From: a virus
Lineage: Duplodnaviria > Heunggongvirae > Uroviricota > Caudoviricetes
IMG/VR virus record: IMGVR_UViG_3300046474_000142
Reading direction: 5' to 3' (one strand)
DNA: 28,927 bases
Position 1 is the stretch's first letter. Every line of letters begins with the position of its first letter. Position numbers and translations under genes: made by a program. Below, piece after piece: positions 1,890-27,857 of the stretch. The notes below the pieces were generated by a model that did no database searches, was not told where the DNA came from, and worked only from the letters and a program-made list of their open reading frames with translations.

Positions 1890-3368
1890 TCAAATAGTTG
1901 GGATGGGGCTAGGCTTCGACAGGTCCGGTACAACGAAATCTGGGATGTTGCCGTTCTTCGCTAGGAAGTTGAAGGCATCGGCACAGGCGTCTACTTGGTC
2001 GTTCTTCTCGGCACGGATGCCTTGGAAGTGCTCAAGCTCCGTGAAGAAGTCTTCGTTCCAGTCTCCCTCTACGATGTCCACCAGACCGGCTTCGCACATA
2101 GAACAGAACGGCAGGAAGCGCTGAATCTTACTGGTATGGCCCGAAATAGGGATACCCTTGACAGTGATTCCTTGTTCTGCTAGAGCACGGATGAAGAACT
2201 GCGTAGCAGCCTTACCACCGCCGTTATCCTTCGGGATCGTCACTGGGACATCCAGCCCGTCCTCGTTGTGGGACGTATCGATCAACATCTTCACTACACC
2301 GTCCGTCAACTTGCGATCACGGTCTACGTGCTCGATTACATAACGGCCAGCCTTTGTACGGCTCATCTTAACGCCTGCCGTCCAGTCTGGGTCCGGGTAG
2401 ACTTCGCTTGGTACGGAGTGTGCCAAGTCCCAAGAGCGCACGCGTCCTGTTACATCGTGTGGAGCAAACTTAACCTTGTTCACCCATGCACGGTTGAAAA
2501 CGCTACTACCTTCCGTAACAGCAGTCCACGATCCTTTTAGGAATCGAAGCTGGTTCACACGGGACATCGATAGCAGGTTAGCCAGATAGCCCGGATTATT
2601 CTTCATCAGAACCGGGTTGTCATAGATGTTCATCGGGATGTACTTCATACTCGATGGCATCCAGTTCACGCCCTTGATGTATCCGTGGCCTACGCGCTCG
2701 TACAATTCGTCTGGATCGTCGGACCAATGAATCTTGTTATCGAGGATAACAAACCAGCGAACGATGTCTTCGGTTCCGGCTTTCGGGATACCCGTATCCA
2801 TATCAAGTGAGAACTTAACCCAGTCATATAGGTAACTGTTTCGATCCGGGTTACAGGTAATCATCAATTGCAGCTTGCCTTTGAACGTAGTGCTACGGAG
2901 ACGAGACTTGAGCATTAGAATCTGCTCCAATTTCATTTCCGCACCTTCGTCGCAGATAACAGTCGTGAACTGTCCGCCCTGCAATTCCGAAAGGTCGTCA
3001 GGCATTGCCTTGAATGTAATGGTAGCTCCATTCTTGAACTGCCATTCTTTTTGCTGCGCTTTCCAGACCGCACCAAATGGACGGTACAATTGCTTGCTAC
3101 TATCGATCAAACCACCCGGCTGCATTAGCTGCGGATAGGTCAGACGAACGATAAGCACGCGAGCTGCCGGGTCTTGGCAGTCACCCAAAGCTTTGAGCAA
3201 CGCAAGGTGACTCTTACCTGAACCCGCTGACCCGCCTTGAATCAAGATGTCAACAGAACTTTCCGTGAGCACCTTTCGCTGCTTTTCGGAACACGGCCCG
3301 AGAACAATCCCTTGCTCTTGTTCGTGCGCCTTCTCTACATTCTCTGTGATTAGCTTTTTTCGGGCCAT
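1890..3368 (-). CDS. terL: Terminase large subunit
   Basis: Walker A GGSAGSGKS, Walker B ICDEG, LRFLKGSW, RSWDLA and C-terminal NDQVDA nuclease motif; start moved to MARKK at 3368 (AAAGGA RBS). Confidence 0.95.
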   Translation of the reverse strand: MARKKLITENVEKAHEQEQGIVLGPCSEKQRKVLTESSVDILIQGGSAGSGKSHLALLKALGDCQDPAARVLIVRLTYPQLMQPGGLIDSSKQLYRPFGAVWKAQQKEWQFKNGATITFKAMPDDLSELQGGQFTTVICDEGAEMKLEQILMLKSRLRSTTFKGKLQLMITCNPDRNSYLYDWVKFSLDMDTGIPKAGTEDIVRWFVILDNKIHWSDDPDELYERVGHGYIKGVNWMPSSMKYIPMNIYDNPVLMKNNPGYLANLLSMSRVNQLRFLKGSWTAVTEGSSVFNRAWVNKVKFAPHDVTGRVRSWDLAHSVPSEVYPDPDWTAGVKMSRTKAGRYVIEHVDRDRKLTDGVVKMLIDTSHNEDGLDVPVTIPKDNGGGKAATQFFIRALAEQGITVKGIPISGHTSKIQRFLPFCSMCEAGLVDIVEGDWNEDFFTELEHFQGIRAEKNDQVDACADAFNFLAKNGNIPDFVVPDLSKPSPIPTI

Positions 3369-3378
3369 ATATGATCCT

Positions 3379-3708
3379 TTACTTAGTAATATCTTGTGTG
3401 TACGAGTACGTATCAATCAGGATCGTTCTAATTTTACCGAAAATGTCGTGCATTTCGATGTCGAAAAAGAACTCTCCCACGTGGTCCGCCTGCGCCTCAG
3501 TTGGTGAAAACTCAACTAGCCCAGATGCGGGGTCCGTCACAATCCCGGTAATTTGGTACACTGGTGCTGTTCCCACATCTGGTGCGGATGTGGTGCTTAG
3601 CGTCATTTTAAATGTGCAACCAGACAAATTAGCTGGTTGCCCCGTTGTGCTCATCGTGATAATGAACTGGTCGGCGTAGGTATCGCCCCTGATTCGTTTG
3701 ATAGGCAT
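3379..3708 (-). CDS. BppU-N-like (Ig-like) virion protein
   Basis: IRGDT start, beta-rich fold pattern, D..SGLVEFSPT..Q...G...FDIE typical of BppU N-terminal-like domains. Confidence 0.6.
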   Translation of the reverse strand: MPIKRIRGDTYADQFIITMSTTGQPANLSGCTFKMTLSTTSAPDVGTAPVYQITGIVTDPASGLVEFSPTEAQADHVGEFFFDIEMHDIFGKIRTILIDTYSYTQDITK

Positions 3709-3715
3709 ATTGTCC

Positions 3716-4102
3716 TTAAATTAAAGTAGCGTTGAAGCTGAAATCGATCCGTTTGATAGTTAGCTTATCAGACGCCTTAACCCCCGGAGATGCAAACGCC
3801 AACGTTCCGCTAGCTACGCTTACGCCGGCAGTTACGCCAGACAACGTGATACCTAGTCGCAGATTAGCTAGAGCGCTTGCACTGCCGAGAGCGGTCCCAG
3901 TAATTGATGCTCCGATAACCAAGTTGCCATTGGCAAGTCCTGCGCCTATAGCGCTACCTGCCAAGTCTGCGCTGAAACTCATTACGCTGGAAGCAGTACT
4001 AACTCCGACTGAAGCGCCTGACATTCCTGTAGTGGTGGGAGCGCCCTGCGTGCCGGGGCTATCGCCAAGTGCGGTTGCACCGAATGTGTTATATCCAAAC
4101 AT
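3716..4102 (-). CDS. Gly/Ala/Ser-rich putative virion protein
   Basis: MFGYNTFG start, roughly 22-aa repeats of L.G...G.....G.L; operon context. Confidence 0.55.
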   Translation of the reverse strand: MFGYNTFGATALGDSPGTQGAPTTTGMSGASVGVSTASSVMSFSADLAGSAIGAGLANGNLVIGASITGTALGSASALANLRLGITLSGVTAGVSVASGTLAFASPGVKASDKLTIKRIDFSFNATLI

Positions 4103-4111
4103 GGTGCGTCC

Positions 4112-5185
4112 TTATGGGTGAATACTAAATTGAAAAATCTTACCTTCACCACTTTGCACAACGTACGCAAACTTCCCATCTGCTGATGTGAGTACCCCGT
4201 ATGGCCCTGCGTTCGACGCGGCGATAGCAGAAGCGCTAGGGTTTGACGGAACCAAGAATGGAACCTTCTTGATCGGCAAGCCATTTGTATTGATTGCTAG
4301 GTCGCGGGTAAGCTGTGCGATGTAGTTGCCATCGCTTCCCGGAATGTAGATGCTCTTGCCATCCGGTGTAATGGCGATACCGTACGGCCCATTAATTCCG
4401 CTGATTGTGCCTACCGCCGACAGAGCGCCGGTTCCTGTATCCCGCGTGAAAATGCCGATGTTCGCTGCGGTATCATTCGCCACATACAGATTCTTACCAT
4501 CGGGAGAGACTACAGCTACGGCGGGCCAACCGGCACTTGGGACAGTTGCCGCCCCCATCTGGTTGAGCAAGCCGGTCCCGGTGTCGCGGGTGTACTGCGA
4601 AATCGAGCCGCCGTTATTGCAGGAGTAGACGCTAGCACCATCCGGTGAAATCGTAATGCCCTGCTGCGAAGTTACGCCGGGTACTGTTGCCGGACTTAGT
4701 GCTACCAGTGCGCCCGTACCTGCATCGCGGGAGAACTGCGATACGAAGGCGTTATTACCGTGGGACACATAAACGTGCGTATTGTTGGTGTCAGGACTCA
4801 GCACAATACCGAACGGCTGTGTTCCACAAACCATAGCAGTCTGCTTAGTTAGCAGGCCGGTTCCTGTATCGCGGGAGTAAATGCCGATATCACTATTGCT
4901 AAAGTTTGGTGCGTAGACAAACTTGCCGTCATTACTAATAGCGACGAAGCGTGGGTTACGCCCTGACCCGCCTGCGCTCACAGAGGCGGGCGTCAGAGGG
5001 TTAAGCTGGCCTGTGTTTACATCACGCGAATACTGATAAATCGAATTGTTGCCAGAGGCAGCGACGTAGGCGAAATCGCCATTTGGTGAGATAACCATGT
5101 ACCACGGCTGTGTTCCTGCTGCTACAGACGTACCAATTGGCGATAGCGTGCCGGTTGCTGCGCTACCGCGTCTACGGCGCGTCAT
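4112..5185 (-). CDS. Beta-propeller protein (lactonase/YncE-like), putative virion appendage or receptor-binding protein
   Basis: About 7 repeats of SPDG..vYv...I.QY.RD..TG.L; start at 5185 gives an ATGA overlap with the upstream stop. Confidence 0.75.
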   Translation of the reverse strand: MTRRRRGSAATGTLSPIGTSVAAGTQPWYMVISPNGDFAYVAASGNNSIYQYSRDVNTGQLNPLTPASVSAGGSGRNPRFVAISNDGKFVYAPNFSNSDIGIYSRDTGTGLLTKQTAMVCGTQPFGIVLSPDTNNTHVYVSHGNNAFVSQFSRDAGTGALVALSPATVPGVTSQQGITISPDGASVYSCNNGGSISQYTRDTGTGLLNQMGAATVPSAGWPAVAVVSPDGKNLYVANDTAANIGIFTRDTGTGALSAVGTISGINGPYGIAITPDGKSIYIPGSDGNYIAQLTRDLAINTNGLPIKKVPFLVPSNPSASAIAASNAGPYGVLTSADGKFAYVVQSGEGKIFQFSIHP

Positions 5186-5853
5186 TGCGCACCTACGCAG
5201 ACCCAAGCGCCTGCACCCGCGTTAAGGGCTGAATTCCACTTCAACAGAACCGACAGCATCGCACCAGCGGTAGTAGAAGCAGGTAGGGTGACAGTTGATG
5301 ACGCGAATTTCGTACCCCATAGCGTGATATTGCGCGCCCCGCCGTTGTCGGTGATTTCAATCTCAATTTCTTCACCATGTACAGGCGTACCTGTGAGGCC
5401 GCTCGTCATCGAAGTGATGTTCTGTGCAAGGCCGGTGATGCGAAACACATCGCCCAGATCGGAATTGATAGCTGGCGTGGCGGACTGTGCAACGGTAACG
5501 ACGCGAGGCTGTGTACGCTTGTTTGTAAGCGTAACAGCGTTCTCACTGTCCACTGCGTAGCTCGCTGGGTAGACAACCGTTACATCTTTGCTGCCACTGG
5601 CGAACGTGACTGGCGTGGTTCCGCCTGCACTGCTTGAAATGACGCCGTTACGAGTTAATACGCCACCTGATAGCGTGTAGTACCCCAACTCCCACGCGCC
5701 AGCCGAGTCTGGGCCTACCTTGACAGGGATACGTGTGGCTCCGTCCGCGTAGGCGCTTGCAAACGTAAGATAACCTAGAGGGCTACCTGTAGGCGTAAAT
5801 GAAGCTGCGCTTACACTTGTAGTTGCTTCTTTTACGTTGTCCTTGTAATTCAT
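5182..5853 (-). CDS. Putative fibre/appendage virion protein
   Basis: N-terminal D.VKE.TT...WELG..T...LTR..V.SSS...F..G.KDV.V.YPA and C-terminal GTP..G..I.I.DNG.AR modules typical of phage fibre proteins. Confidence 0.65.
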   Translation of the reverse strand: MNYKDNVKEATTSVSAASFTPTGSPLGYLTFASAYADGATRIPVKVGPDSAGAWELGYYTLSGGVLTRNGVISSSAGGTTPVTFASGSKDVTVVYPASYAVDSENAVTLTNKRTQPRVVTVAQSATPAINSDLGDVFRITGLAQNITSMTSGLTGTPVHGEEIEIEITDNGGARNITLWGTKFASSTVTLPASTTAGAMLSVLLKWNSALNAGAGAWVCVGAQ

Positions 5854-8327: not shown

Positions 8328-8885
8328 TTACTTGTAGGACGCGCCTCTGCAAACCCTACTAATATTCGTGTGATGGACGTTGTACACGTTCGCTAATGCC
8401 CTTGCACCGTTCACCTTGCAACGCGGCTTGTATCTGCCCCGAATCTCCTTGACTTGATCCTCACTTAGACCGGCGTTCAAGTTATTACTCCCGCTGCGCT
8501 TCGCCACACTTGCTGCAAAGTTCGGTGCCAGCATGAAGTCAGCCGAGTTATCTTTGTACGTACCCCACGCTAGATTGCTGGCTGCGTTATCTGTTTTATC
8601 GCCGTTCAAGTGGCGAACGATTACGTTACCGTAGCCTTGTGAATTACACATTGACACTAGATCGTCGCTCGGAGCATCCAGAAAAGCCTCAGCGACCGCC
8701 CTGTGAATCTTAATGCAATGATTCGTCCCACCCCTTCCGCCGATCTTTGTTGCGACAGTCAGGTAGCCTTCCTTACTTACGTACTGCCTTAAAATCTTAC
8801 CGCTACGCTTGCTATACAGTGAGCCGAACTTCGACACTTTGAAGTACTCTTCGAATCCTACAACATCTTTCCAAACTTCCTGCAT
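8328..8885 (-). CDS. NUMOD4-HNH homing endonuclease inside tRNA cluster
   Basis: EVWKDVVGFEEYFKVS NUMOD4, IHRAVA, VRHLNGDKTDNAASNLAWG; C-terminal HTH. Confidence 0.9.
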   Translation of the reverse strand: MQEVWKDVVGFEEYFKVSKFGSLYSKRSGKILRQYVSKEGYLTVATKIGGRGGTNHCIKIHRAVAEAFLDAPSDDLVSMCNSQGYGNVIVRHLNGDKTDNAASNLAWGTYKDNSADFMLAPNFAASVAKRSGSNNLNAGLSEDQVKEIRGRYKPRCKVNGARALANVYNVHHTNISRVCRGASYK

Positions 8886-9396: not shown

Positions 9397-9801
9397 TCAC
9401 GCCGCTTCTGCGATTGCTCTTTCGCCAGCCGGTTTGTAAATCCAACCAAACTGCCTAGCAGTGCGGCGCTTGTGGCAGTTAGCACACCGAACGTCGCACT
9501 TATTAATCTCTTCTTGGAGCCTAGCGAGCGTTACATTGTTTCGTACCATGCGGGACAAAGAATCTGTCTTATCGCTTTGGTGATCGAACTCAAGTACCAC
9601 TGGGTCGCTTTCTCCGCAGTCCACGCAAGGGTGGCTGCTAAGGTATGTGGCAAGAAACTCGCGTCTCGCATTTTGCTGCTCTGCTTGACACTGTTTGCAG
9701 TGTCCAGACTTTTTCGTTGTACCGTAGAATTGATCCTTCGGCTTCCGTGTCTTACAACACGAACACAACTTATCGTCCAGAATCGGCCTTCCCATACCCA
9801 T
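9397..9801 (-). CDS. Zn-finger HNH endonuclease
   Basis: CxxC..CxxC then CVDCG...LEFDH...CDVRCANCH; start reassigned to MGMGRP at 9801 (AAGGAG RBS) because the longer ORF overlaps RNA elements. Confidence 0.8.
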   Translation of the reverse strand: MGMGRPILDDKLCSCCKTRKPKDQFYGTTKKSGHCKQCQAEQQNARREFLATYLSSHPCVDCGESDPVVLEFDHQSDKTDSLSRMVRNNVTLARLQEEINKCDVRCANCHKRRTARQFGWIYKPAGERAIAEAA

Positions 9802-9820
9802 GTAACTCTCCTTAACATCC

Positions 9821-9941
9821 CGCATACGTTCTTCAGCGGCGGATTCTCCTACGTACGTTAGGCCGGTCGTCTGCTGAATAGGCGTGGAATTGACGCCTCG
9901 TTTTAGGTCTGCTACCATCGTTGGGTAGCCTTTCGTATGCG
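9821..9941 (-). ncRNA. Multibranch RNA candidate D (between tRNA-like RNA and HNH)
   Basis: CGCATACG/CGTATGCG closing stem; GCTACC/GGTAGC, AGGCGT/ACGCCT, TTCAGC/GCTGAA and CCTA/TAGG helices. Confidence 0.55.
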
Positions 9942-9942
9942 C

Positions 9943-10067
9943 CGAGAACTGAGGGGATCGAACCCCCGACCTTCTTGCCAGTAGCAATGGTACGGTACGT
10001 TTCCGCACCAACGTGTGAACGTCTTCACCAAAACCAACAAGCTGCTCTACCGCTGAGCTAAGTTCCC
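9943..10067 (-). ncRNA. tRNA-like RNA with a 60-nt branched domain replacing the anticodon loop, no encoded CCA
   Basis: GGGAACT/AGTTCTC acceptor, GCTC-AGCGGTA-GAGC D arm, CTTG/CAAG stem, GGGGG-TTCGATC-CCCTC T arm; insert at 9978-10037. Confidence 0.8.
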
Positions 10068-10105
10068 ACTGAAATCTTTCGTAGCTAATTTCGCTACGTA
10101 CTGCT

Positions 10106-10144
10106 ATCATACAACATGACTTGTGTTTTGTCAAGTTTTGTGCA
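10106..10144 (-). promoter_or_regulatory. sigma70 promoter driving the tRNA-like RNA and downstream tRNAs
   Basis: TTGACA-17-TATGAT, preceded by TGCACAAAAC. Confidence 0.8.
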
Positions 10145-10647: not shown

Positions 10648-10686
10648 ATCTTACACTACGTACCCTTGTTTGTCAAGTTTTTGCAA
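10648..10686 (-). promoter_or_regulatory. sigma70 promoter of the tRNA operon (TACGTAGTG class)
   Basis: TTGACA-17-TAAGAT; 19 nt identical to the promoter at 1808-1846; -35 overlaps the HNH stop codon. Confidence 0.85.
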
Positions 10687-11221
10687 CAACCCTTGACTTA
10701 CCGAACCATTCTAGGTTATCTACGTGGTTGTTTTTCGCATTGTCGTCCTTGTGACGGATGTTGCGATTACCACCGGGATTCGGTAGGTGCGTAGCAGCCA
10801 CTAGGCGGTGTACGTACTTGATCGTAGTGCCAGTTGAAATGTACTGGTAGCCTTTGCTACCTTTCAGCGTAACCGGGCTAAGCCACTTTGCACGACAGTG
10901 CGACCAAATACGCCCGTCGCGGGTAGCGGACCACTTACCTTCGAAGCCGGGAACCGGCAGGGCGTCAGTGGCCTCAAACTCTGCGATGCGGGCTTCACGG
11001 GCTGCTGTGTCGGCTTCGACAGCTTCCACTACGTCCTTACCTACCTTCGCAATGCGCTTGTCACGCTTCAGTGTCTTGCGGACTTGGCGAAGCTGCTCTA
11101 CAATGTCAAGACGGCCATTGCTGGTGTACGTCTTGATTGCGATATGGAGCGCTTGCCGGGAGATTCCCTTAGCTCGTTCCACTGCTTCGTCCAAGGTTAA
11201 ATCTTTCCAGCTCTTCGCCAT
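10673..11221 (-). CDS. NUMOD4-HNH endonuclease with helical N-terminal extension
   Basis: PVPGFEGKWSATRDGRIWS, YVHRLVA, RHKDDNAKNNHVDNLEW. Confidence 0.8.
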   Translation of the reverse strand: MAKSWKDLTLDEAVERAKGISRQALHIAIKTYTSNGRLDIVEQLRQVRKTLKRDKRIAKVGKDVVEAVEADTAAREARIAEFEATDALPVPGFEGKWSATRDGRIWSHCRAKWLSPVTLKGSKGYQYISTGTTIKYVHRLVAATHLPNPGGNRNIRHKDDNAKNNHVDNLEWFGKSRVVAKT

Positions 11222-11246: not shown

Positions 11247-11582
11247 TTAGACTTCTTGGATATTGTTCATATCCAGACGGGGAGCTGCTGGTTTCGGTAC
11301 ATCGTCCCCTACCAGCGGAGTCTTCAACCCGCTAGCCTTGATTTCTGCGATCTGGCGAGTCAGTTCATCTTTGTTGATGGCCTCGCTTACCTTGATCTTG
11401 TAGTCAAGCAGCTTGTCAGCACATGCTACGCGGACCTTGACCGCCTCTTTTGGGTTGTTCATTGTGTCAACGAGAAGGTCAACCGCTTCCGGTGTAACTC
11501 TGTCGAGTTGCTTCAACAGGTCATCGAGTTCGTGTTTTCTCTTCAAAAACACGGCTCCTGCCTTTAGGGCTATAGTAGCCAT
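11247..11582 (-). CDS. Hypothetical protein, possible terminase small subunit
   Basis: Small helical protein with VRVACADKLLD resembling TerS central motifs; heads the packaging transcript direction. Confidence 0.4.
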   Translation of the reverse strand: MATIALKAGAVFLKRKHELDDLLKQLDRVTPEAVDLLVDTMNNPKEAVKVRVACADKLLDYKIKVSEAINKDELTRQIAEIKASGLKTPLVGDDVPKPAAPRLDMNNIQEV

Positions 11583-12196
11583 TATTTAGTTCCTTGATTA
11601 GCTCTCCGATCCCGCATTGCTTGCTTGATCTTAGCCTTATGTTCGTCTGACAGCCTCCTACCCTTGAGCGGTGATGGCTGCTCAGCGTAGCGTTTAGCCG
11701 TTGCCTCTTTATTCCTCTGCTTCCACAATTCCGACCTAGGCCGGGTTGCCGCAACGGACATCTTCTGCTTTGTTGCTGCTGTCATCGCTTGCTGAGCCTT
11801 CGACATATTTGCTCTCACAATCTCTGTTACAGTCGTCCCTAGCCTGCCCGCTGCTAATTTTCGTCTAGTGCTGTCCCCTACCTTCTTTCCAGAGGCTCCT
11901 TCGCCTCCGTCTGTTAGGTTTGCAAGAATCCCAGTACTATTGTCCTTCCTGCCGTACTGCGCGATAAGCTCAGCTTCTAGTTTAAATGCAGCAGCCTCAT
12001 CGGGAGTGCGGTGGAGAGTTTCCACTAAGACTTCAACACCTTCTCTCGTCGCTTTCTTAATCGTGTTGCTTTTCAATGAGTTCCGCGCAAGATTGCTAGG
12101 GTAGAAGTGATGTGACGAACGATTACCTTTGCCCTTGCCAATGTAGAACGGAAGCTCTGACGTAGCTAGTCTTAACTGGTAGACGTAAAAGTCCAT
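11582..12196 (-). CDS. GIY-YIG homing endonuclease with NUMOD3 repeats
   Basis: FYVYQL...PFYIGKG..R...H, E.ELI..YGR....G.LANLTDGGEG, LSDEHKAKIK; start at 12196 (AAGGAG RBS). Confidence 0.88.
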   Translation of the reverse strand: MDFYVYQLRLATSELPFYIGKGKGNRSSHHFYPSNLARNSLKSNTIKKATREGVEVLVETLHRTPDEAAAFKLEAELIAQYGRKDNSTGILANLTDGGEGASGKKVGDSTRRKLAAGRLGTTVTEIVRANMSKAQQAMTAATKQKMSVAATRPRSELWKQRNKEATAKRYAEQPSPLKGRRLSDEHKAKIKQAMRDRRANQGTK

Positions 12197-12225
12197 GTAC
12201 CACTCCTTAGTCTCTATGTACAGCG

Positions 12226-12265
12226 ATTGTACACTACGTACCACGTTTTGTCAACTTTACGCAAC
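12226..12265 (-). promoter_or_regulatory. sigma70 promoter (TACGTAGTG class)
   Basis: TTGACA-17-TACAAT with spacer ending TACGTAGTG. Confidence 0.85.
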
Positions 12266-12388
12266 ACTATCTATAAATACTACTAGTGCCATAGGCACAA
12301 AACATATAACTATAGTATTATTACTTCCCTTCCTATTGGCTTCCCTTCAGGAAGCCTTAATTATAGTAATAAGTTATAGTATGTCCTC

Positions 12389-13220: not shown

Positions 13221-13616
13221 ATGAGTAACCTATCCGTCCTCCGCAATGCCCTGAAGCTGAACGCCGAACTCATCAACTTCATCCAGTACGCAATCTTCGA
13301 GTTCAAGGCCGAGGCTGCACGGTGGAAGTTGGAGGGCGAGACTGCTTACTTCATCGCCGCCAATGAAGACCGCCGCAAGCACGAGAAGAAGCTGGCGAAG
13401 GCGATTGAGATGCAGAAGCGTACGAAGGCAGAAATCGCTACCGCAGTCCGTAAGGAAGCGATCCGCCGCATGTTCCTGTTCGTCTTCGGAAAATGCCCGG
13501 AACAGCAAGTGAACACTTCGCAGGAACAGTACAAGATGCTGGCAACGTTGGCTGAAGAACGTCGCGCTGCGCTGCGTCTGGCGAAGAAAGCTGCGAGTGT
13601 TACGAATGCAGCCTAA
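13221..13616 (+). CDS. Hypothetical helical/coiled-coil protein
   Basis: AGGAG RBS, 131 aa. Confidence 0.75.
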   Translation: MSNLSVLRNALKLNAELINFIQYAIFEFKAEAARWKLEGETAYFIAANEDRRKHEKKLAKAIEMQKRTKAEIATAVRKEAIRRMFLFVFGKCPEQQVNTSQEQYKMLATLAEERRAALRLAKKAASVTNAA

Positions 13617-14328
13617 GTTCAAGGACATTGCAGGGTTGGAGGGGCGGTACGCCGCTTCTTCTGACGGAAGAATTTGGAGCTACAAGTCCGAAAGGTTCCT
13701 TAAACCGGCAAAAATCGGGAGGGGATACGATGCAGTGTCACTTCCGGTCGGGCCTGAAGGGAAACAAATTCGACAGTACGTGCATCGACTAGTTGCCAGA
13801 GCATTCCTCCCGAATTTGGAAGGCAAGGCTGAAGTAAATCACATCAACGGCGTCAAAACTGACAACCGTGCGGCGAACTTGGAGTGGGTAACTCGCCGGG
13901 AGAACATTGCGCACGCGGTGAGTACTGGGCTTTCGAAGGTCATGGGAGAAGACAATCCTATGGCTAAGCTAGACGAGATGCGGGTTGCTGAAATACGTGA
14001 GAGGTACTTCAATGGCCCGGAGACTCAGGATGAACTGGGGGTAGCTTTCGGGGTCCACAGGGTGCTGATAAAGAAGATCGTCACAGGGGCGATCTGGCCC
14101 CTTAACTGGAAAGCTGAATACAACCTGCCTCCCGGTTGGAAGACGAAGCTTCAGGTTGCGAAAAACAGCCGATACGACCACGCCCTCGCTACCGTCATCC
14201 GCCAAAGGTACGCCGAAGGCGGATGTACACATAGGGGTCTAGCGAAAGAATTTGGACTCCCCCATCCGACGATTAACCTGATTGTGAACGGAAGAGACTG
14301 GACTACGAAATACCCGTTGACCGTCTGA
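13606..14328 (+). CDS. NUMOD4-HNH homing endonuclease with two C-terminal HTH repeats
   Basis: FKDIAGLEGRYAASSDGRIWS, YVHRLVA, EVNHINGVKTDNRAANLEW. Confidence 0.92.
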   Translation: MQPKFKDIAGLEGRYAASSDGRIWSYKSERFLKPAKIGRGYDAVSLPVGPEGKQIRQYVHRLVARAFLPNLEGKAEVNHINGVKTDNRAANLEWVTRRENIAHAVSTGLSKVMGEDNPMAKLDEMRVAEIRERYFNGPETQDELGVAFGVHRVLIKKIVTGAIWPLNWKAEYNLPPGWKTKLQVAKNSRYDHALATVIRQRYAEGGCTHRGLAKEFGLPHPTINLIVNGRDWTTKYPLTV

Positions 14329-14371: not shown

Positions 14372-15034
14372 ATGGCGAAGAAGAAGATTCTGGGGTATTG
14401 CAGGGTGAGTACTAAGGAGCAGGGCAAGACCCGCAACGGTCTGGAAGCTCAGGCCGAAGCAATCCGCTTGTTCGCCCACTACAACGGGTACGAGCTGATC
14501 GAGATTGCTGAGGAAGTCGAATCCGGCGCTGACGATAGCCGTCCGGTGCTGGCCGATGTCACCAAGCGTGCAGCCAAGTTGGGCGCTTACGTGGTCGTCA
14601 ATAAGCTTGACCGCCTCTCCCGCGATGCCCTGTTCATCCTCACGTATGTGAAGACGAATCCCCGCTTCATCGTCACGATGTTGGGGGAGGATGTTGACCC
14701 GTTCATGCTTCACATCTATGCCGCTCTGGCCGAGAAGGAGCGTGCGCAGATTTCCGACCGCACCCGTGCTGCCCTTCAGGCAAAGAAAGCCCGTGGGGAG
14801 GCTCTTGGAGCGTCACAGGCGGTTTTGAAGAAGGCCACGGCCAGCTCCATCGTCGCCATGCAGTCGCAGGCTGACGCGTTCGCAGCTCGGATGAAGACCA
14901 CTGTTAAGCGGATGGTTGACGCTGGGATGTCTTACAGGGCCATCGCCGCTGAGTTGAATCAGAACGGCACCAAGACTGCCCGTGGCGGTGATTGGCACGC
15001 TATGACGGTGAGCAATCTGGTAGCGCGTTTCTGA
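14372..15034 (+). CDS. Small serine recombinase (resolvase/invertase catalytic domain plus recombinase-type DNA-binding tail)
   Basis: GYCRVST catalytic Ser, KLDRLSRD, AEKER..IS.RT; C-terminal SYRAIA.ELN..G..T.RGG.W. Confidence 0.92.
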   Translation: MAKKKILGYCRVSTKEQGKTRNGLEAQAEAIRLFAHYNGYELIEIAEEVESGADDSRPVLADVTKRAAKLGAYVVVNKLDRLSRDALFILTYVKTNPRFIVTMLGEDVDPFMLHIYAALAEKERAQISDRTRAALQAKKARGEALGASQAVLKKATASSIVAMQSQADAFAARMKTTVKRMVDAGMSYRAIAAELNQNGTKTARGGDWHAMTVSNLVARF

Positions 15035-16671: not shown

Positions 16672-16700
16672 TTGACTTCTGAGGTAGGGTGTGGTACTAT
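16672..16700 (+). promoter_or_regulatory. sigma70 promoter
   Basis: TTGACT-17-TACTAT. Confidence 0.7.
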
Positions 16701-16721
16701 ACACACTTTAAGAGGTACGTA

Positions 16722-17222
16722 GTGGCAGCTAAGATCGAAGACGGAATGACGCCAAAGCAGCGTTATTTCAAGAAAAAGTATGACGAAGCCCCGCTGATCG
16801 CATGTGCTTGCGGTTGCGGGGAACAGTTGAAGGCGGTGGACAAGTATGCTCGTCCGGTGAAGTATGTAAATGGGCATAACACGCGCATTGAAGAAGGGCG
16901 CAGCCTTACGGACTGGGAAGTAGAGAAACGCTGGCGGGTAAAGAATCCAGATAAGATGCGGGAAGCCAAGACTGCGTTCTACCGGAAGCGAAAGCTTCTT
17001 GCTATGGAACTGAAAGGGAACGAGTGCTCGTTCTGCGGTATGGGGTACAACGGAAAGAACGCTGCGGCTTTTGAATTTCATCACTCTGACCCTTCAGTTA
17101 AAGAGTACACGATAAGCAAAATGCTGATTAACAAGGCGTGGGATTCTACGCTGAAAGAACTTGAAGTTTGCGTGCTAGCGTGCGCTAACTGCCACAACCA
17201 ACACCACAGCCCCGGCTGGTAA
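16722..17222 (+). CDS. Zn-finger HNH endonuclease
   Basis: CACGCG, CSFCG...FEFHH.DP...CVLACANCH; GTG start after AAGAGG. Confidence 0.8.
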   Translation: MAAKIEDGMTPKQRYFKKKYDEAPLIACACGCGEQLKAVDKYARPVKYVNGHNTRIEEGRSLTDWEVEKRWRVKNPDKMREAKTAFYRKRKLLAMELKGNECSFCGMGYNGKNAAAFEFHHSDPSVKEYTISKMLINKAWDSTLKELEVCVLACANCHNQHHSPGW

Positions 17223-20401: not shown

Positions 20402-20890
20402 TTAATGCGTTGTCTGGGCTTCGGCCTTCGACACGGCTTCGCTTGCTTCAGCCGCCGCTACAGCCTTCTTCGTCAACTCTTCGCGGGTAGCCATCACCAG
20501 ACCTTCTACCCCGTGCTCGTTCGGGCTGGTGTGCTCGATCTTCTCTTGCGTCAGATGATCAATCCCGATCACGAGGAAAGACCCGCCTTCCAATTCGTAG
20601 GAAGCGACACTGGATACCCCGTGCTTTTTCGGGTCTTTCGGCATCCCTACTTCCAGCCCTACCAGCTTGGCCCCGTCTTCCGGGGGCGTCTGCCGGAGGA
20701 TTTTTAAGGCCACTTCCAGACCCCTTGCTTGAGTCTCGGCCCCTTCGATGGCGGCTGCTATCGCTTCCTCGTGTGTAGGTTCTTTCTCCGGCTTTGATCC
20801 ACCGAAGCGCTGTTGCAAGAGAGCCATCAGCTCGTCCATGCCTACTCGCTGGCCCTGCATCATCATCAGGCAATGAATGTTTCTGCACAT
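20402..20890 (-). CDS. Hypothetical acidic protein
   Basis: AAGGAG RBS, terminator downstream. Confidence 0.7.
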   Translation of the reverse strand: MCRNIHCLMMMQGQRVGMDELMALLQQRFGGSKPEKEPTHEEAIAAAIEGAETQARGLEVALKILRQTPPEDGAKLVGLEVGMPKDPKKHGVSSVASYELEGGSFLVIGIDHLTQEKIEHTSPNEHGVEGLVMATREELTKKAVAAAEASEAVSKAEAQTTH

Positions 20891-21154
20891 TTTCTAATAC
20901 TCCTTTTGGTTGTCTTCCCATAGATTCCTCCTTCCAAACTGTCAAAGGGTGAGGAACCAGATAGCCCCTCGACCCCTTGATCTTAATCAAACTTTCCCGC
21001 CTATGCCGCACAATATGCCAAACCGACCCAAGAAAATCACGTAACCCTTTGATTTTAAAAATTTTTATTGGAAAAGCGTCCTCGCCAGCGGGACTATCGC
21101 CAATGGCGAATTTATATCCGCTAGTTACAGGTGTTTTCGGGGGAATTTATCTAT

Positions 21155-21204
21155 GGGGAGGGGAGGCTGGGGAATGGGATTTGGGGAGGGAGCCGGGAGA
21201 GGGG
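21155..21204 (+). other. G-quadruplex-forming motif
   Basis: Eight runs of 3 or more G with 1-5 nt loops. Confidence 0.6.
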
Positions 21205-21377
21205 CAATCGGGCTTAGGCTCAAGAGCGAGAGGGTGGCTTAACCCCTCGCCGGGGCGGGTTTGAGGGGTCAGGCTTTGACCAAAAATATCCATAGGAGGC
21301 CGTTAGGGGGTCGTCTAGGGGAAGGGTCCAACTCTAGGCCGATGGCCTCTACGGGCCTCTAAACGCGTCTGAGGGGC

Positions 21378-21437
21378 TGTGTATAAAAGGCTGAGGAACG
21401 TCTGCCCTGTGGACAAAGGTGTTTCCAGTGTGGATAA
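21378..21437 (-). promoter_or_regulatory. DnaA-box cluster (left)
   Basis: TTATACACA 21378, TTGTCCACA 21408, TTATCCACA 21429, all same orientation. Confidence 0.75.
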
Positions 21438-22384
21438 CTTTATGGGCCATTGGCCCTAGGATGGGCCTAGGACCGCATAGGAAGGCCCATAAGGCTAGAA
21501 CGGGGATAGGCTAGGGGGTTGAGTAGGGTAGGAGATGCAAACGCCCTGTAGGCCGTCTAATCAGTTATAGCTTTGGCCTATGGCCTAGTGAGACTCGATA
21601 GCGTTTGGTAATGGGCCATAGGCCCGGAATGCAATTCCCATGCCAAGAAGAAGCCATTGGCTAATGTCCGGGTTAAACACCCGTCCCCCGCTCTGTCGTG
21701 TGGAATAGACTATTGAGCCTGTATTCGCCATTGGCGTAGGCTATAACTAGGCCATTGGCCCTTATATAACCAATTGCCATAGGCAAGCCATTTCTATATG
21801 CTTTCCAGCTATATGCTATCAATTCGCCATTGGCGATAGTGTAAGGCTATGGGCCACTGGCCAGAGTCTATATAACTGAAAGTAATGATAACTGGATTCT
21901 ATATACTTGCGTTTTGGCAATGTGTATGATACCCTAAACCCATGAGTGCCTAGCACGAATGGGGAAGTCAGTCAAATACATTTTAGTTATATAAGGTGCC
22001 ATAGGCACAGAACTAACTGTTATGGGCCTATGGCCCTAGTAGGTACTGTTACTTAGGCTCCCTGTAGAGGGGGAGCCAATAGGGAAGGGGAGAGGCTAGG
22101 CCATAGGCCAATAGAGATATGTTCTGTGCCTATGGCACTAGATACACTTGATACGCTAGCCGAATAACTGCTAGGTGGAAGATGTATGTACGGATTGATT
22201 AGAGGCTCTACAAGCGTTTTAAATGGCCTTGCCTATACCAGCCTAGCCAAGCAATGCCGAACGTTCAGTGGTGCGCCTATAAATGGCCTTCCTGAGCCTT
22301 TGCGGGGTATGTCCTAGGGCGTATTACCGATTACCCGGCGTACAGGGCTGATTGCGTGGTACGTGAGTACTCAAGTATTGCGAT

Positions 22385-22421
22385 AAAGAAAAGCCCGTAT
22401 AGCGGGCTAGGCTATACGGGC
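22385..22421 (-). terminator. Strong intrinsic terminator ending the early operon
   Basis: 11-bp GCCCGTATAGC/GCTATACGGGC stem plus TTTTCTTT. Confidence 0.85.
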
Positions 22422-22426
22422 CGGGG

Positions 22427-22642
22427 TTAGCAGTGGGCATGGGGCCAGCCGGTGTATTCAAGCTTTAAAACGTCTGCAATCATTTGCAATGGTTTGATGT
22501 CTTCACATACAGCGGCGATGTATTGATTTGTAAGGTTCCTCCCTGCCCTAGTGAAAAGGAACAACCGGAAGCCGTTTTGATAGGTTCCGATTTGGTAATG
22601 CGTATGCGCTATTGCAGGCGCTTTCGGATTAGCTTTAAGCAT
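22427..22642 (-). CDS. Early-type hypothetical protein
   Basis: Start MLKANP after AAGGGA. Confidence 0.7.
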   Translation of the reverse strand: MLKANPKAPAIAHTHYQIGTYQNGFRLFLFTRAGRNLTNQYIAAVCEDIKPLQMIADVLKLEYTGWPHAHC

Positions 22643-26696: not shown

Positions 26697-26725
26697 ATTA
26701 TAAGGAGTGATTCAGGTATGTGCAA
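26697..26725 (-). promoter_or_regulatory. Strong sigma70 early promoter
   Basis: TTGCAC-17-TATAAT with upstream T-tract/UP-like element. Confidence 0.8.
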
Positions 26726-27154
26726 TACCCTACACATAGATTTATTCAAAAAAAAAGATACAGCCCACGGAAACGGGCCGGGGACAGCTCTAAAGAGAGA
26801 TCACGCCCGCGTCACGTACGCGCACGCGTAGCAATAACCGTGCCACCGGCGATTTTCGCCAACTGGGTTTTTATACAGTAAAACGCCGTAGAGCCGTTTT
26901 TAAGGCATGGTGGATATGCGGGGCTAGGTAGCTGTGTATAACTCACTGTACCCCCCTCAAAACGCGTCCAAATCGATGCCATTGTGGATAACTTTTGCCA
27001 TTTTCGGAGGGTTTCTGTAAATCGGGCATGTATTTTCTGTTACTTTTACATGCCGATTTGTGAAATCGGGCTGAGTTATCCACAGGCTAAAATGCACTTT
27101 CCCTTTAAAATCAAGTACTTAACTCTTATAGCAAATCACTTTTCGGTCCTATGT

Positions 27155-27186
27155 CTTATATAAGAGTGCTCTTATATAAGAGTGCT
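27155..27186. repeat. Tandem 16-bp repeat with palindromic core
   Basis: CTTATATAAGAGTGCT x2. Confidence 0.85.
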
Positions 27187-27344
27187 ACGAGAGCAACAAT
27201 AGTTGCTTTTATTCAACATACACCGTTAGGGACCATGCAAAACCCGTGCCAGAAAATTTCCTAACCCTTACAGGCCCGTGCTGGTCCATTTTGAAAAATT
27301 GCCAGCTAGTAATTTTCTAAAAAGCAATATTACTTGCTTGTACC

Positions 27345-27374
27345 GGGTCCGGGGAGGGATGAGGGGGCCGGGGG
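27345..27374 (+). other. G-quadruplex-forming motif
   Basis: Five runs of 3 or more G. Confidence 0.5.
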
Positions 27375-27857
27375 TCAGGTATGCGGCATAACCTGTTTTT
27401 ATATCTGCAACCCGGTTAAGCTGGTAGCTAGTGTTACGTAAATGTTTCATGGCCTAGCCGGGACCGGACACACTCCCCGGCTGGATAGCGTCCGCCTATC
27501 GGTTTCGTGAATCGATAGGTTGAGCCTATGGCCTGTGGATAACATGCCTCAGAAGCAACATTTTGAGAGTTATCCACAGCACGCCCGTGCTTTTTTAAGG
27601 TTGTCCACAGGGTTATCCACAGATGTGTTGCTCTGTGGCAACGTTTGTTGCATTTCGGAAACTTTCGATGACCGAGAGCAACCCGACCATGTTTTCAGAG
27701 GGAGAGGACGGGGGCGGCGGCTCTAAGAAAGAACTGAAAATTCCCCAGTCCTGTCTGAAAATCTGACTTTTGAATTCCAGAACCGTTTTTGAGAAAATGC
27801 CCCCGGCCCTTGGTAGGAACGGAGGCAGCGTTACGCGTGGAATTTTGCGTGGAAAAT

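Follow-up and report, generated by a model that had tools for sequence, protein, structure and literature searches.

An array of 15 short hairpin-forming units occupies a gene-free tract in the DNA of an uncultured tailed phage from soil, and comparison of nine genomes indicates that this array is real, conserved and under structural selection for pairing with a capped stem length. The tract also carries an end signature shared with the mapped termini of cultured Pseudomonas phages, and judging from its sequence it is most likely a genome end. New in this analysis are the end signature with its predicted cut, the near-constant spacing of host-factor sites around that cut, and the recognition of counterpart arrays in cultured phages.

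The mini-hairpin array and its conservation

The stretch of DNA analysed, 28,927 nt and referred to hereafter as the window, is part of a phage genome for which two contigs of the probable source run sum to about 92.8 kb (~93 kb). The nearest cultured terminases (about 40% identity) belong to the Nankoku-, Pakpuna- and Otagoviruses of Pseudomonas. The array sits in the gene-free tract 20890-22427, at the convergent junction of two gene blocks, with a minus-strand small-gene block (presumably early) on one side and the plus-strand RtcB block on the other. A blastn search of the tract against cultured phages gave no match. The main features are as follows.

3-1151: portal gene
1890-3416, minus strand: terminase large subunit gene (phrog_979), putative cutting enzyme, 40% identical to those of KPP10/PAK_P3-like and PAK_P1-like myoviruses with short direct terminal repeats (DTRs)
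1144-1779, 8328-8885, 9397-10134, 10673-11221, 11582-12244, 13597-14328, 16689-17222: HNH/homing endonuclease genes
12280-12360, plus strand: outlying inverted copy (~85 bp) of the segment 22140-22050, including the unit at 12286
21097-22138, mixed strands: array of 15 units NN-GCC-nnn-GGC-N'N', each with a 4-5-bp stem, a C-G closing pair and a 3-nt loop
21097, 21336, 21444, 21574, 21613, 21651, 21725, 21749, 21774, 21824, 21851, 21996, 22024, 22098, 22126: starts of the 13-mer units
22392-22422, minus strand: intrinsic terminator that closes the small-gene block and bounds the tract

The window also contains 15 tRNA genes, RtcB, HNH nucleases and a serine recombinase. At least seven HNH/homing endonuclease genes lie within 17 kb, several of them in or beside the 15-tRNA cluster, and a serine resolvase/invertase gene (14372-15034, plus strand; PF00239 with PF07508) adjoins HNH genes in a phage that is apparently of the lytic type. 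The gene preceding terL encodes a beta-sandwich protein not recognisable as a small terminase, and a 364-aa seven-bladed beta-propeller protein, lactonase-like (PF10282), is encoded upstream of the terminase block (4112-5206, minus strand). Between the tract and the convergent block is a 162-aa ORF (20402-20890, minus strand) without family or IMG/VR relatives. The outlying copy at 12280-12360 is found at the divergent junction of the late and middle gene blocks and is absent there in the relatives.

The pattern GCC-nnn-GGC occurs 27 times in the window, 15 times within 21099-22136 and 12 times dispersed in the remaining 27.9 kb. When the tract was dinucleotide-shuffled 2000 times, it contained 0.70 copies on average and five at most, compared to the 15 observed, and only the 3-nt spacing was enriched (15 copies, vs 0-2 for spacings 0-2 and 4-8). 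An earlier note on this DNA had counted 14 copies; all of these are present, and a GAT-centred unit at 21338 had been missed. The note's observation that the flanking bases are complementary in every copy, with all four pair types in use, extends to the added unit (15 of 15; G-C 8, C-G 3, T-A 3, A-T 1). Re-pairing shuffles of this flank gave a mean of 5.5 and never reached 15 in 100,000 trials. The second flanking pair is complementary in 9 of the 15 units (only p = 0.04 for the window by itself), and for the original set we obtained the same 8 of 14 as before. Perfect 13-mers outside the tract are present at 3924, 12286 and 12570, as had been reported. The TATA(T)AAC motifs described as interspersed with the hairpins are a different matter: TATAAC is locally enriched (five copies in the tract, six in the rest of the window) yet, because its copy number among relatives varies from 0 to 7, it is on this comparison no conserved part of the tract. 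In the first scans for the DNA pattern, most matches were chance occurrences or tandem repeats whose flanks do not covary. The computed stability of the units as single strands is modest (-3.5 to -4.2 kcal/mol). Their loops are mostly ATA/TAT and AAT/ATT with one GNA, and units that face opposite ways are able to pair mutually over long range.

Protein and pattern searches found this tract in eight more genomes (G001, G002, G004-G008 and L164). Their tracts hold 12-18 units each, except for G004, which has five plus variants; in the complete relative G001, 14 of 16 such units lie inside 1.2 kb. Alignment across relatives, which had been proposed as a check, showed that the flanks do covary: in the window and the eight relatives together, sequences whose shared ancestry means that counts are not independent events, the first flank is paired in 108 of 113 units compared to 33 by shuffling (shuffle maximum 52) and the second in 81 of 113 compared to 45 expected, while a third pair is avoided (14 of 113, 39 expected). 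The remaining counts come from the same nine genomes. There are 11 different perfect 2-bp flank types, and the first flank never shows a G-T pair. The core, CC-(ATA/TAT/AAT/ATT)-GG or CC-ATW-GG, is nearly invariant, and the outer pair of GCC/GGC itself covaries (G-C 93, C-G 7 and T-A 5 among 109 sites), with G-C replaced by C-G or T-A in 12 cases. Of 109 stems, 68 have 5 bp and 27 have 4 bp (95 of 109 in all), and only six are longer. Units are oriented evenly (60 vs 64 on the two strands). ATA/TAT loops were used 53 times, AAT/ATT 48 times and TAA/TTA not at all, and GTA/TAC loops were found in four of 131 stems of at least 4 bp.

Changes at single positions point the same way. The homologous unit at 21725 reads GTGCC, GCGCC, GAGCC, GCTCC or GTCCC in different genomes, with right arms that match, and a G-C to A-T double change within a core distinguishes strains with 97-99% identity across the region. 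Given the 11 perfect flank types and the changes at homologous sites, the covariation cannot, on these alignments, come from the copying of a few variants. The intrastrand hairpins proposed in the earlier note are thus supported over nine genomes, at homologous positions and between near-identical strains. At the corresponding junction of a more distant relative, G003 (TerL 51%), both the array and the end signature are absent.

The end signature and its surroundings

The mapped right ends of G1, Ab03, phiPsa300, phiPsa374 and Ab02 have the context TATTT-N39-GTT^AA in common. Their DTRs are 756, 771, 523, 526 and 1165 bp long, respectively, and those of the related cultured phages overall are 523-1190 bp. 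The ends of phiPsa300 and phiPsa374 were determined by PhageTerm (10.1101/2022.06.10.495718). The PaP1 record stops 7 nt before the signature motif, and in UNO-G1W1, which was held out, the signature ends 10 nt beyond the Nanopore-derived record end. The signature matches once per genome in G1, phiK7A1, Ab02 and Kremar; in Felix-O1-type phages matches were found at chance level only.

The elements in and beside the tract of the window are listed here.

21042-21054, minus strand: IHF consensus and adjoining A/T tract, ~200 bp beyond the predicted cut
21239-21288, minus strand: right-end signature TATTT-N40-GTT^AA, with the predicted cut between 21241 and 21240 (+/- 1-2 nt)
21378-21386, 21408-21416, 21429-21437, minus strand: three DnaA boxes
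21631-21645, minus strand: sigma54 (RpoN)-type -24/-12 consensus, oriented toward the predicted cut
21669-21700, no strand assigned: conserved block like the cut motif (GGTTAAAC ... TCTGTC), candidate left boundary of the terminal repeat
21907-21963, plus strand: variable module recognised by sequence inspection, a sigma70-like -35/-10 followed by a 25-nt covarying hairpin
22056-22095, no strand assigned: longer covarying hairpin and polypurine tract, second candidate left-boundary zone (about 22045)

The N40 form of the signature, to which the pattern was widened (together with R) after these sequences had been inspected, has a single match in the window, compared to 0.24 expected for the whole window. 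It lies on the strand that, judging from the terminase gene, runs in the direction of the genome. We predict the right end at this position because the signature lies inside the tract of all eight genomes that cover the site, the spacer is always 40 nt, and the sequence past the predicted cut resembles Otagovirus sequence. The terminase very probably cuts at this GTT^AA, in which case the final ~900 bp of packaged DNA would contain 14 of the 15 units. A plain weight matrix made from four mapped right ends did not return the predicted cut among its top hits, the best being the block at 21674 on the other strand; this failure probably results from a 1-2-nt offset after the predicted cut. G002, a near-identical contig, breaks off 82 nt before reaching the predicted cut; this agrees with an end there, but could also be dropout at a G-tract.

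A G-rich plus-strand stretch (21140-21270) straddles the predicted cut, and its G runs are far richer than in most relatives. In one relative, two contigs terminate at a common tract position, which lies next to a strain difference and was not taken as a physical end. The depth of the run X2 contig over 18620-21697 was 66.9, compared to 52-54 for two other shared contigs; this exceeds the effect of a short repeat and was not counted. Contigs over 21.9-27.8 kb, whose depth was not raised, were likewise not counted, since depth is not copy number.

For the left-end signature, (C/T)A^AGC, there are two candidates in the tract, at about 21676 and about 22045, neither of them convincingly conserved. 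The latter was chosen for its likeness to the CCCCTTTCC tract that precedes the left ends of Otago- and Pakpunaviruses by 26-56 bp. In G008 an insertion of ~200 bp with a small ORF (L163 7964-8164) separates the IHF site from the end signature, and a second copy of the cut-like motif is present at its border.

The IHF, DnaA and sigma54 sites are consensus matches. The IHF consensus is present in all eight genomes that cover it and lies 178-213 bp outside the predicted cut in seven; the first DnaA box lies 136-138 bp inside the cut in 8 of 8 genomes, the third 187-189 bp inside in six, and the sigma54-type consensus 389-391 bp inside in five. The sigma54-type motif occurs three times in the window (0.06 expected), is confined to two non-coding tracts, and is also found within the DTRs of PaP1, phiPsa300 and UNO-G1W1. 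Numbers of sigma54-type sites in G1, phiK7A1, PaP1, phiPsa300 and UNO-G1W1 were 3-8 per genome (control 0), mostly near genome ends; a literature search found no paper on such sites in cultured Pseudomonas phages. The sigma70-like element of the variable module is clearer in relatives (TTGACA-17-TACCCT), and the module is absent from G001, G005 and G006. Its 25-nt hairpin has tandem GA mismatches, and the module could give a small RNA product.

A second gene-free tract, 26700-27850, contains seven DnaA boxes (26933-27621), sigma54-type sites at 26831 and 27237, an IHF consensus at 27109 and a direct 15-bp repeat near 27156-27187. G001 and G002 share a conserved DnaA-box cluster here, and phiK7A1 (95.5 kb) has one too. 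This tract is possibly an origin, an early-promoter region or a host-factor sink. A short imperfect repeat at 27744-27799, probably a repeated promoter, recurs ~2.7 kb on and breaks the assemblies of both runs.

Possible roles of the hairpins

We favor, with moderate confidence, a reading in which the tract is the right genome end (a short DTR together with the adjoining upstream flank) of a ~93-kb relative of the Pakpuna-, Nankoku- and Otagoviruses, and the units are DNA mini-hairpins that act in concatemer-junction processing. Ejection, replication priming and packaging had all been suggested for the hairpins; packaging or end-processing fits best because the tract bears the terminal-repeat end signature of the cultured relatives, and ejection is less likely. 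Stems so short rarely extrude from relaxed duplex, so the units most likely fold when the region is single-stranded. In the scheme we envisage, the terminal repeat would be duplicated so that each genome of the concatemer receives two copies, as in T7. The repeat would be nicked and strand-displaced, or else resected, such that both strands become single-stranded and the units could fold on either strand into compact C-G-closed triloop hairpins. A phage protein, perhaps the small terminase or a priming factor, would read the fold and the CC-ATW-GG cap, coat the region and couple second-strand synthesis to the cut, while the host IHF, DnaA and sigma54 sites at fixed distances might help to bend or open the region.

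Parts of this scheme have precedents. T3 and T7 must duplicate the terminal repeat during packaging (PMC5923468), and a hairpin end on T7 concatemers has been proposed (Chung 1990, as cited in PMC11482910, ref. 53). Mini-hairpins of the GNA kind are nuclease-resistant and have little affinity for SSB, and folds like these occur at primase and polymerase sites (PMC3201870, PMC13037366); the ATA/AAT loops may, by analogy, behave like compact GNA triloops. The proposed mechanism as a whole, repeat duplication together with hairpin reading, has in our judgment about an even chance of being correct.

The three DnaA boxes and the consensus IHF site at conserved spacing would also suit a genome-end tract that is a replication origin or re-priming site, opened by DnaA and IHF, with the hairpins as primase-loading signals like those of ssi sites and the G4 origin. 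The priming sites G4 and ssiA do contain mini-hairpins, for which SSB has little affinity (PMC13037366), and GC skew shows a slight local shift around 21 kb. Such an origin is nevertheless unlikely, as the larger DnaA-box cluster at 26933-27621 is without a hairpin array, the G1 DTR has hairpins and zero DnaA boxes, and the units face both ways without a priming-type arrangement. We consider it quite improbable that the units are ordinary duplex sites for a dimeric phage protein (half-site GCCA), with flank complementarity arising incidentally from hairpin-templated repair of a single-stranded end region. The strongly fixed core, the restricted loop (no TAA/TTA), the perfect dyad GCCA-W-TGGC and the three lone units outside the tract would agree with it, but duplex recognition makes left-right covariation unnecessary, repair should lengthen stems whereas pairing ends at 5 bp, and the cultured relatives keep the stem size despite different cores. 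Quasi-palindrome correction in its simple form, which the earlier note held in reserve, is likewise disfavored because stems end at 4-5 bp and the following pair is avoided.

The same note had allowed for RNA hairpins. A structured non-coding RNA, or a selectively neutral array, might be suspected from the promoter-like sites in the tract and from a strand that folds better than shuffles (z -4.8). An RNA is disfavored because the two strands are used equally and G-T pairs are missing from the first flank; there was no Rfam match at E<=1, and the tract is positionally conserved in nine genomes at a mean column identity of 52%. These readings are very unlikely. The least probable is a two-step entry like that of T5, in which the first DNA to enter is a long terminal repeat (about 21.2-27.8 kb), with the tract as its injection-stop region. 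The tract does resemble T5 repeat region 3 in being gene-free, palindrome-rich and provided with DnaA boxes (10.1101/866236), and the second non-coding border at 26.7-27.8 kb repeats the DnaA-box pair 50 bp apart and the sigma54-type sites. However, homologues of A1, A2 and Dmp are absent from the complete relative G001 and the window (A1/A2 by tblastn, E<1), the repeats of related cultured phages do not exceed the 1190 bp given above, and in phiK7A1 a DnaA cluster of this kind lies upstream, 2.6 kb beyond the short repeat inferred for that phage.

Counterpart arrays and comparison with known systems

Cultured phages have similar hairpins beside their ends. Upstream of the left boundary, a stretch of 330-530 bp in each of Kremar, phiPsa300, G1 and Ab02 contains 6-9 short hairpins with a C-G closing pair, and in 4-6 of these the loop is GNA or GNNA (C-GNA/GNNA-G). 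The density of GNA/GNNA hairpins in this flank is 11-14 per kb, compared to about 0.1 in shuffles and 0.2-0.3 per kb in the bulk genome. Their stems vary yet stay paired, and the stem size is the same although the cores differ. Because similarly dense hairpins flank these ends, the array of the window is, by this comparison, the CC-ATW-GG version of an element that the cultured phages also have. Literature searches of incomplete coverage found no description of such arrays, and the published accounts examined give these terminal repeats by length only, with no mention of hairpins or palindromes. We suggest tentatively that the whole group of lytic short-DTR phages, with phages of therapy and biocontrol interest (PAK_P1, KPP10 and phiPsa374) among them, may mark its ends with structure-coded hairpin arrays whose lineage-specific loop cap is read by a co-evolving phage protein; this would be how phages other than T7 duplicate the repeat and place the cut.

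The duplication and cutting of short direct terminal repeats has been worked out mainly for T7 and T3, which use their own RNA polymerase. Our finding supplies cis-elements for this question: a bipartite end signature that matches termini in three cultured genera, and an adjoining covarying hairpin array. As counterpart arrays exist in cultured, tractable Pseudomonas phages, the question is directly accessible. With only assemblies to work from, the signature may also help in orienting and completing genomes of this group.

At the T7/T3 concatemer junction repeated short elements flank the terminal repeat, and T7 has sequence-conserved heptamer repeats, one long palindrome and an RNA polymerase of its own. 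The window has instead many dispersed 13-mers conserved in pairing, and no T7-type RNA polymerase (PF00940) was found in five complete relatives in a search run without a positive control. The likeness lies in a short repeat that needs duplication at packaging (PMC5923468) and in the proposed hairpin intermediate (Chung 1990, as cited in PMC11482910). Repeat region 3 of T5, with its injection-stop signal, likewise lacks genes, lies at the border of a terminal repeat and contains both palindromes and DnaA boxes (10.1101/866236), but T5 has a 10-kb repeat, the A1/A2 genes and eight paired DnaA boxes in 131-bp inverted repeats, and its iss region has five C-G-closed short hairpins per kb and zero GCC-nnn-GGC. 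Paired DnaA boxes in long inverted repeats were not found in our sequences; the three boxes in the tract are on the same strand, and the upstream pair at 26933/26983 is in direct orientation.

The GNA/GNNA mini-hairpins of the G4 origin, ssiA and the N4 virion-RNAP promoters have the same short stem, C-G closing pair and 3-nt loop, and recognition of such folds by proteins is established (PMC13037366, PMC3201870). In contrast, the loops here are ANA/ANT and rarely GNA, and the array is two-way and away from gene starts. Hairpin promoters of the N4 type, with GNA loops before early genes, were not found, the loops being ATW in both orientations; nor was a giant virion RNAP (3,500 aa in N4), the longest open frame in the complete relative having 1,853 codons. 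REP/BIME elements are a poor fit, being 20-40-nt palindromes with a GTAG-type foot, spread genome-wide and associated with a RAYT nuclease, whereas the units here are 13 nt long and confined to one tract.

The closest match is to the short DTRs of the Pakpunaviruses (PaP1, C2-10_Ab02), Nankokuviruses (G1, Ab03) and Otagoviruses (phiPsa300, phiPsa374, Kremar, UNO-G1W1). There the signature spacer is 39 nt rather than 40, the core is AGC-GNA-GCT or TTC-GAC-GAA rather than CC-ATW-GG, and the C(GNA)G loop is common, whereas here it is rare (the four GTA/TAC loops noted above). DnaA boxes lie inside the tract here, unlike in those DTRs, and there is no DNA similarity by blastn. The systems have in common the terminase family (about 40% identity), the TATTT...GTT^AA signature, sigma54-type sites and dense, short-stem, C-G-closed hairpins in both flank and repeat, and the ends of the Pakpuna- and Otagoviruses also lie at a convergent junction after a small-gene terminator, as in the window.
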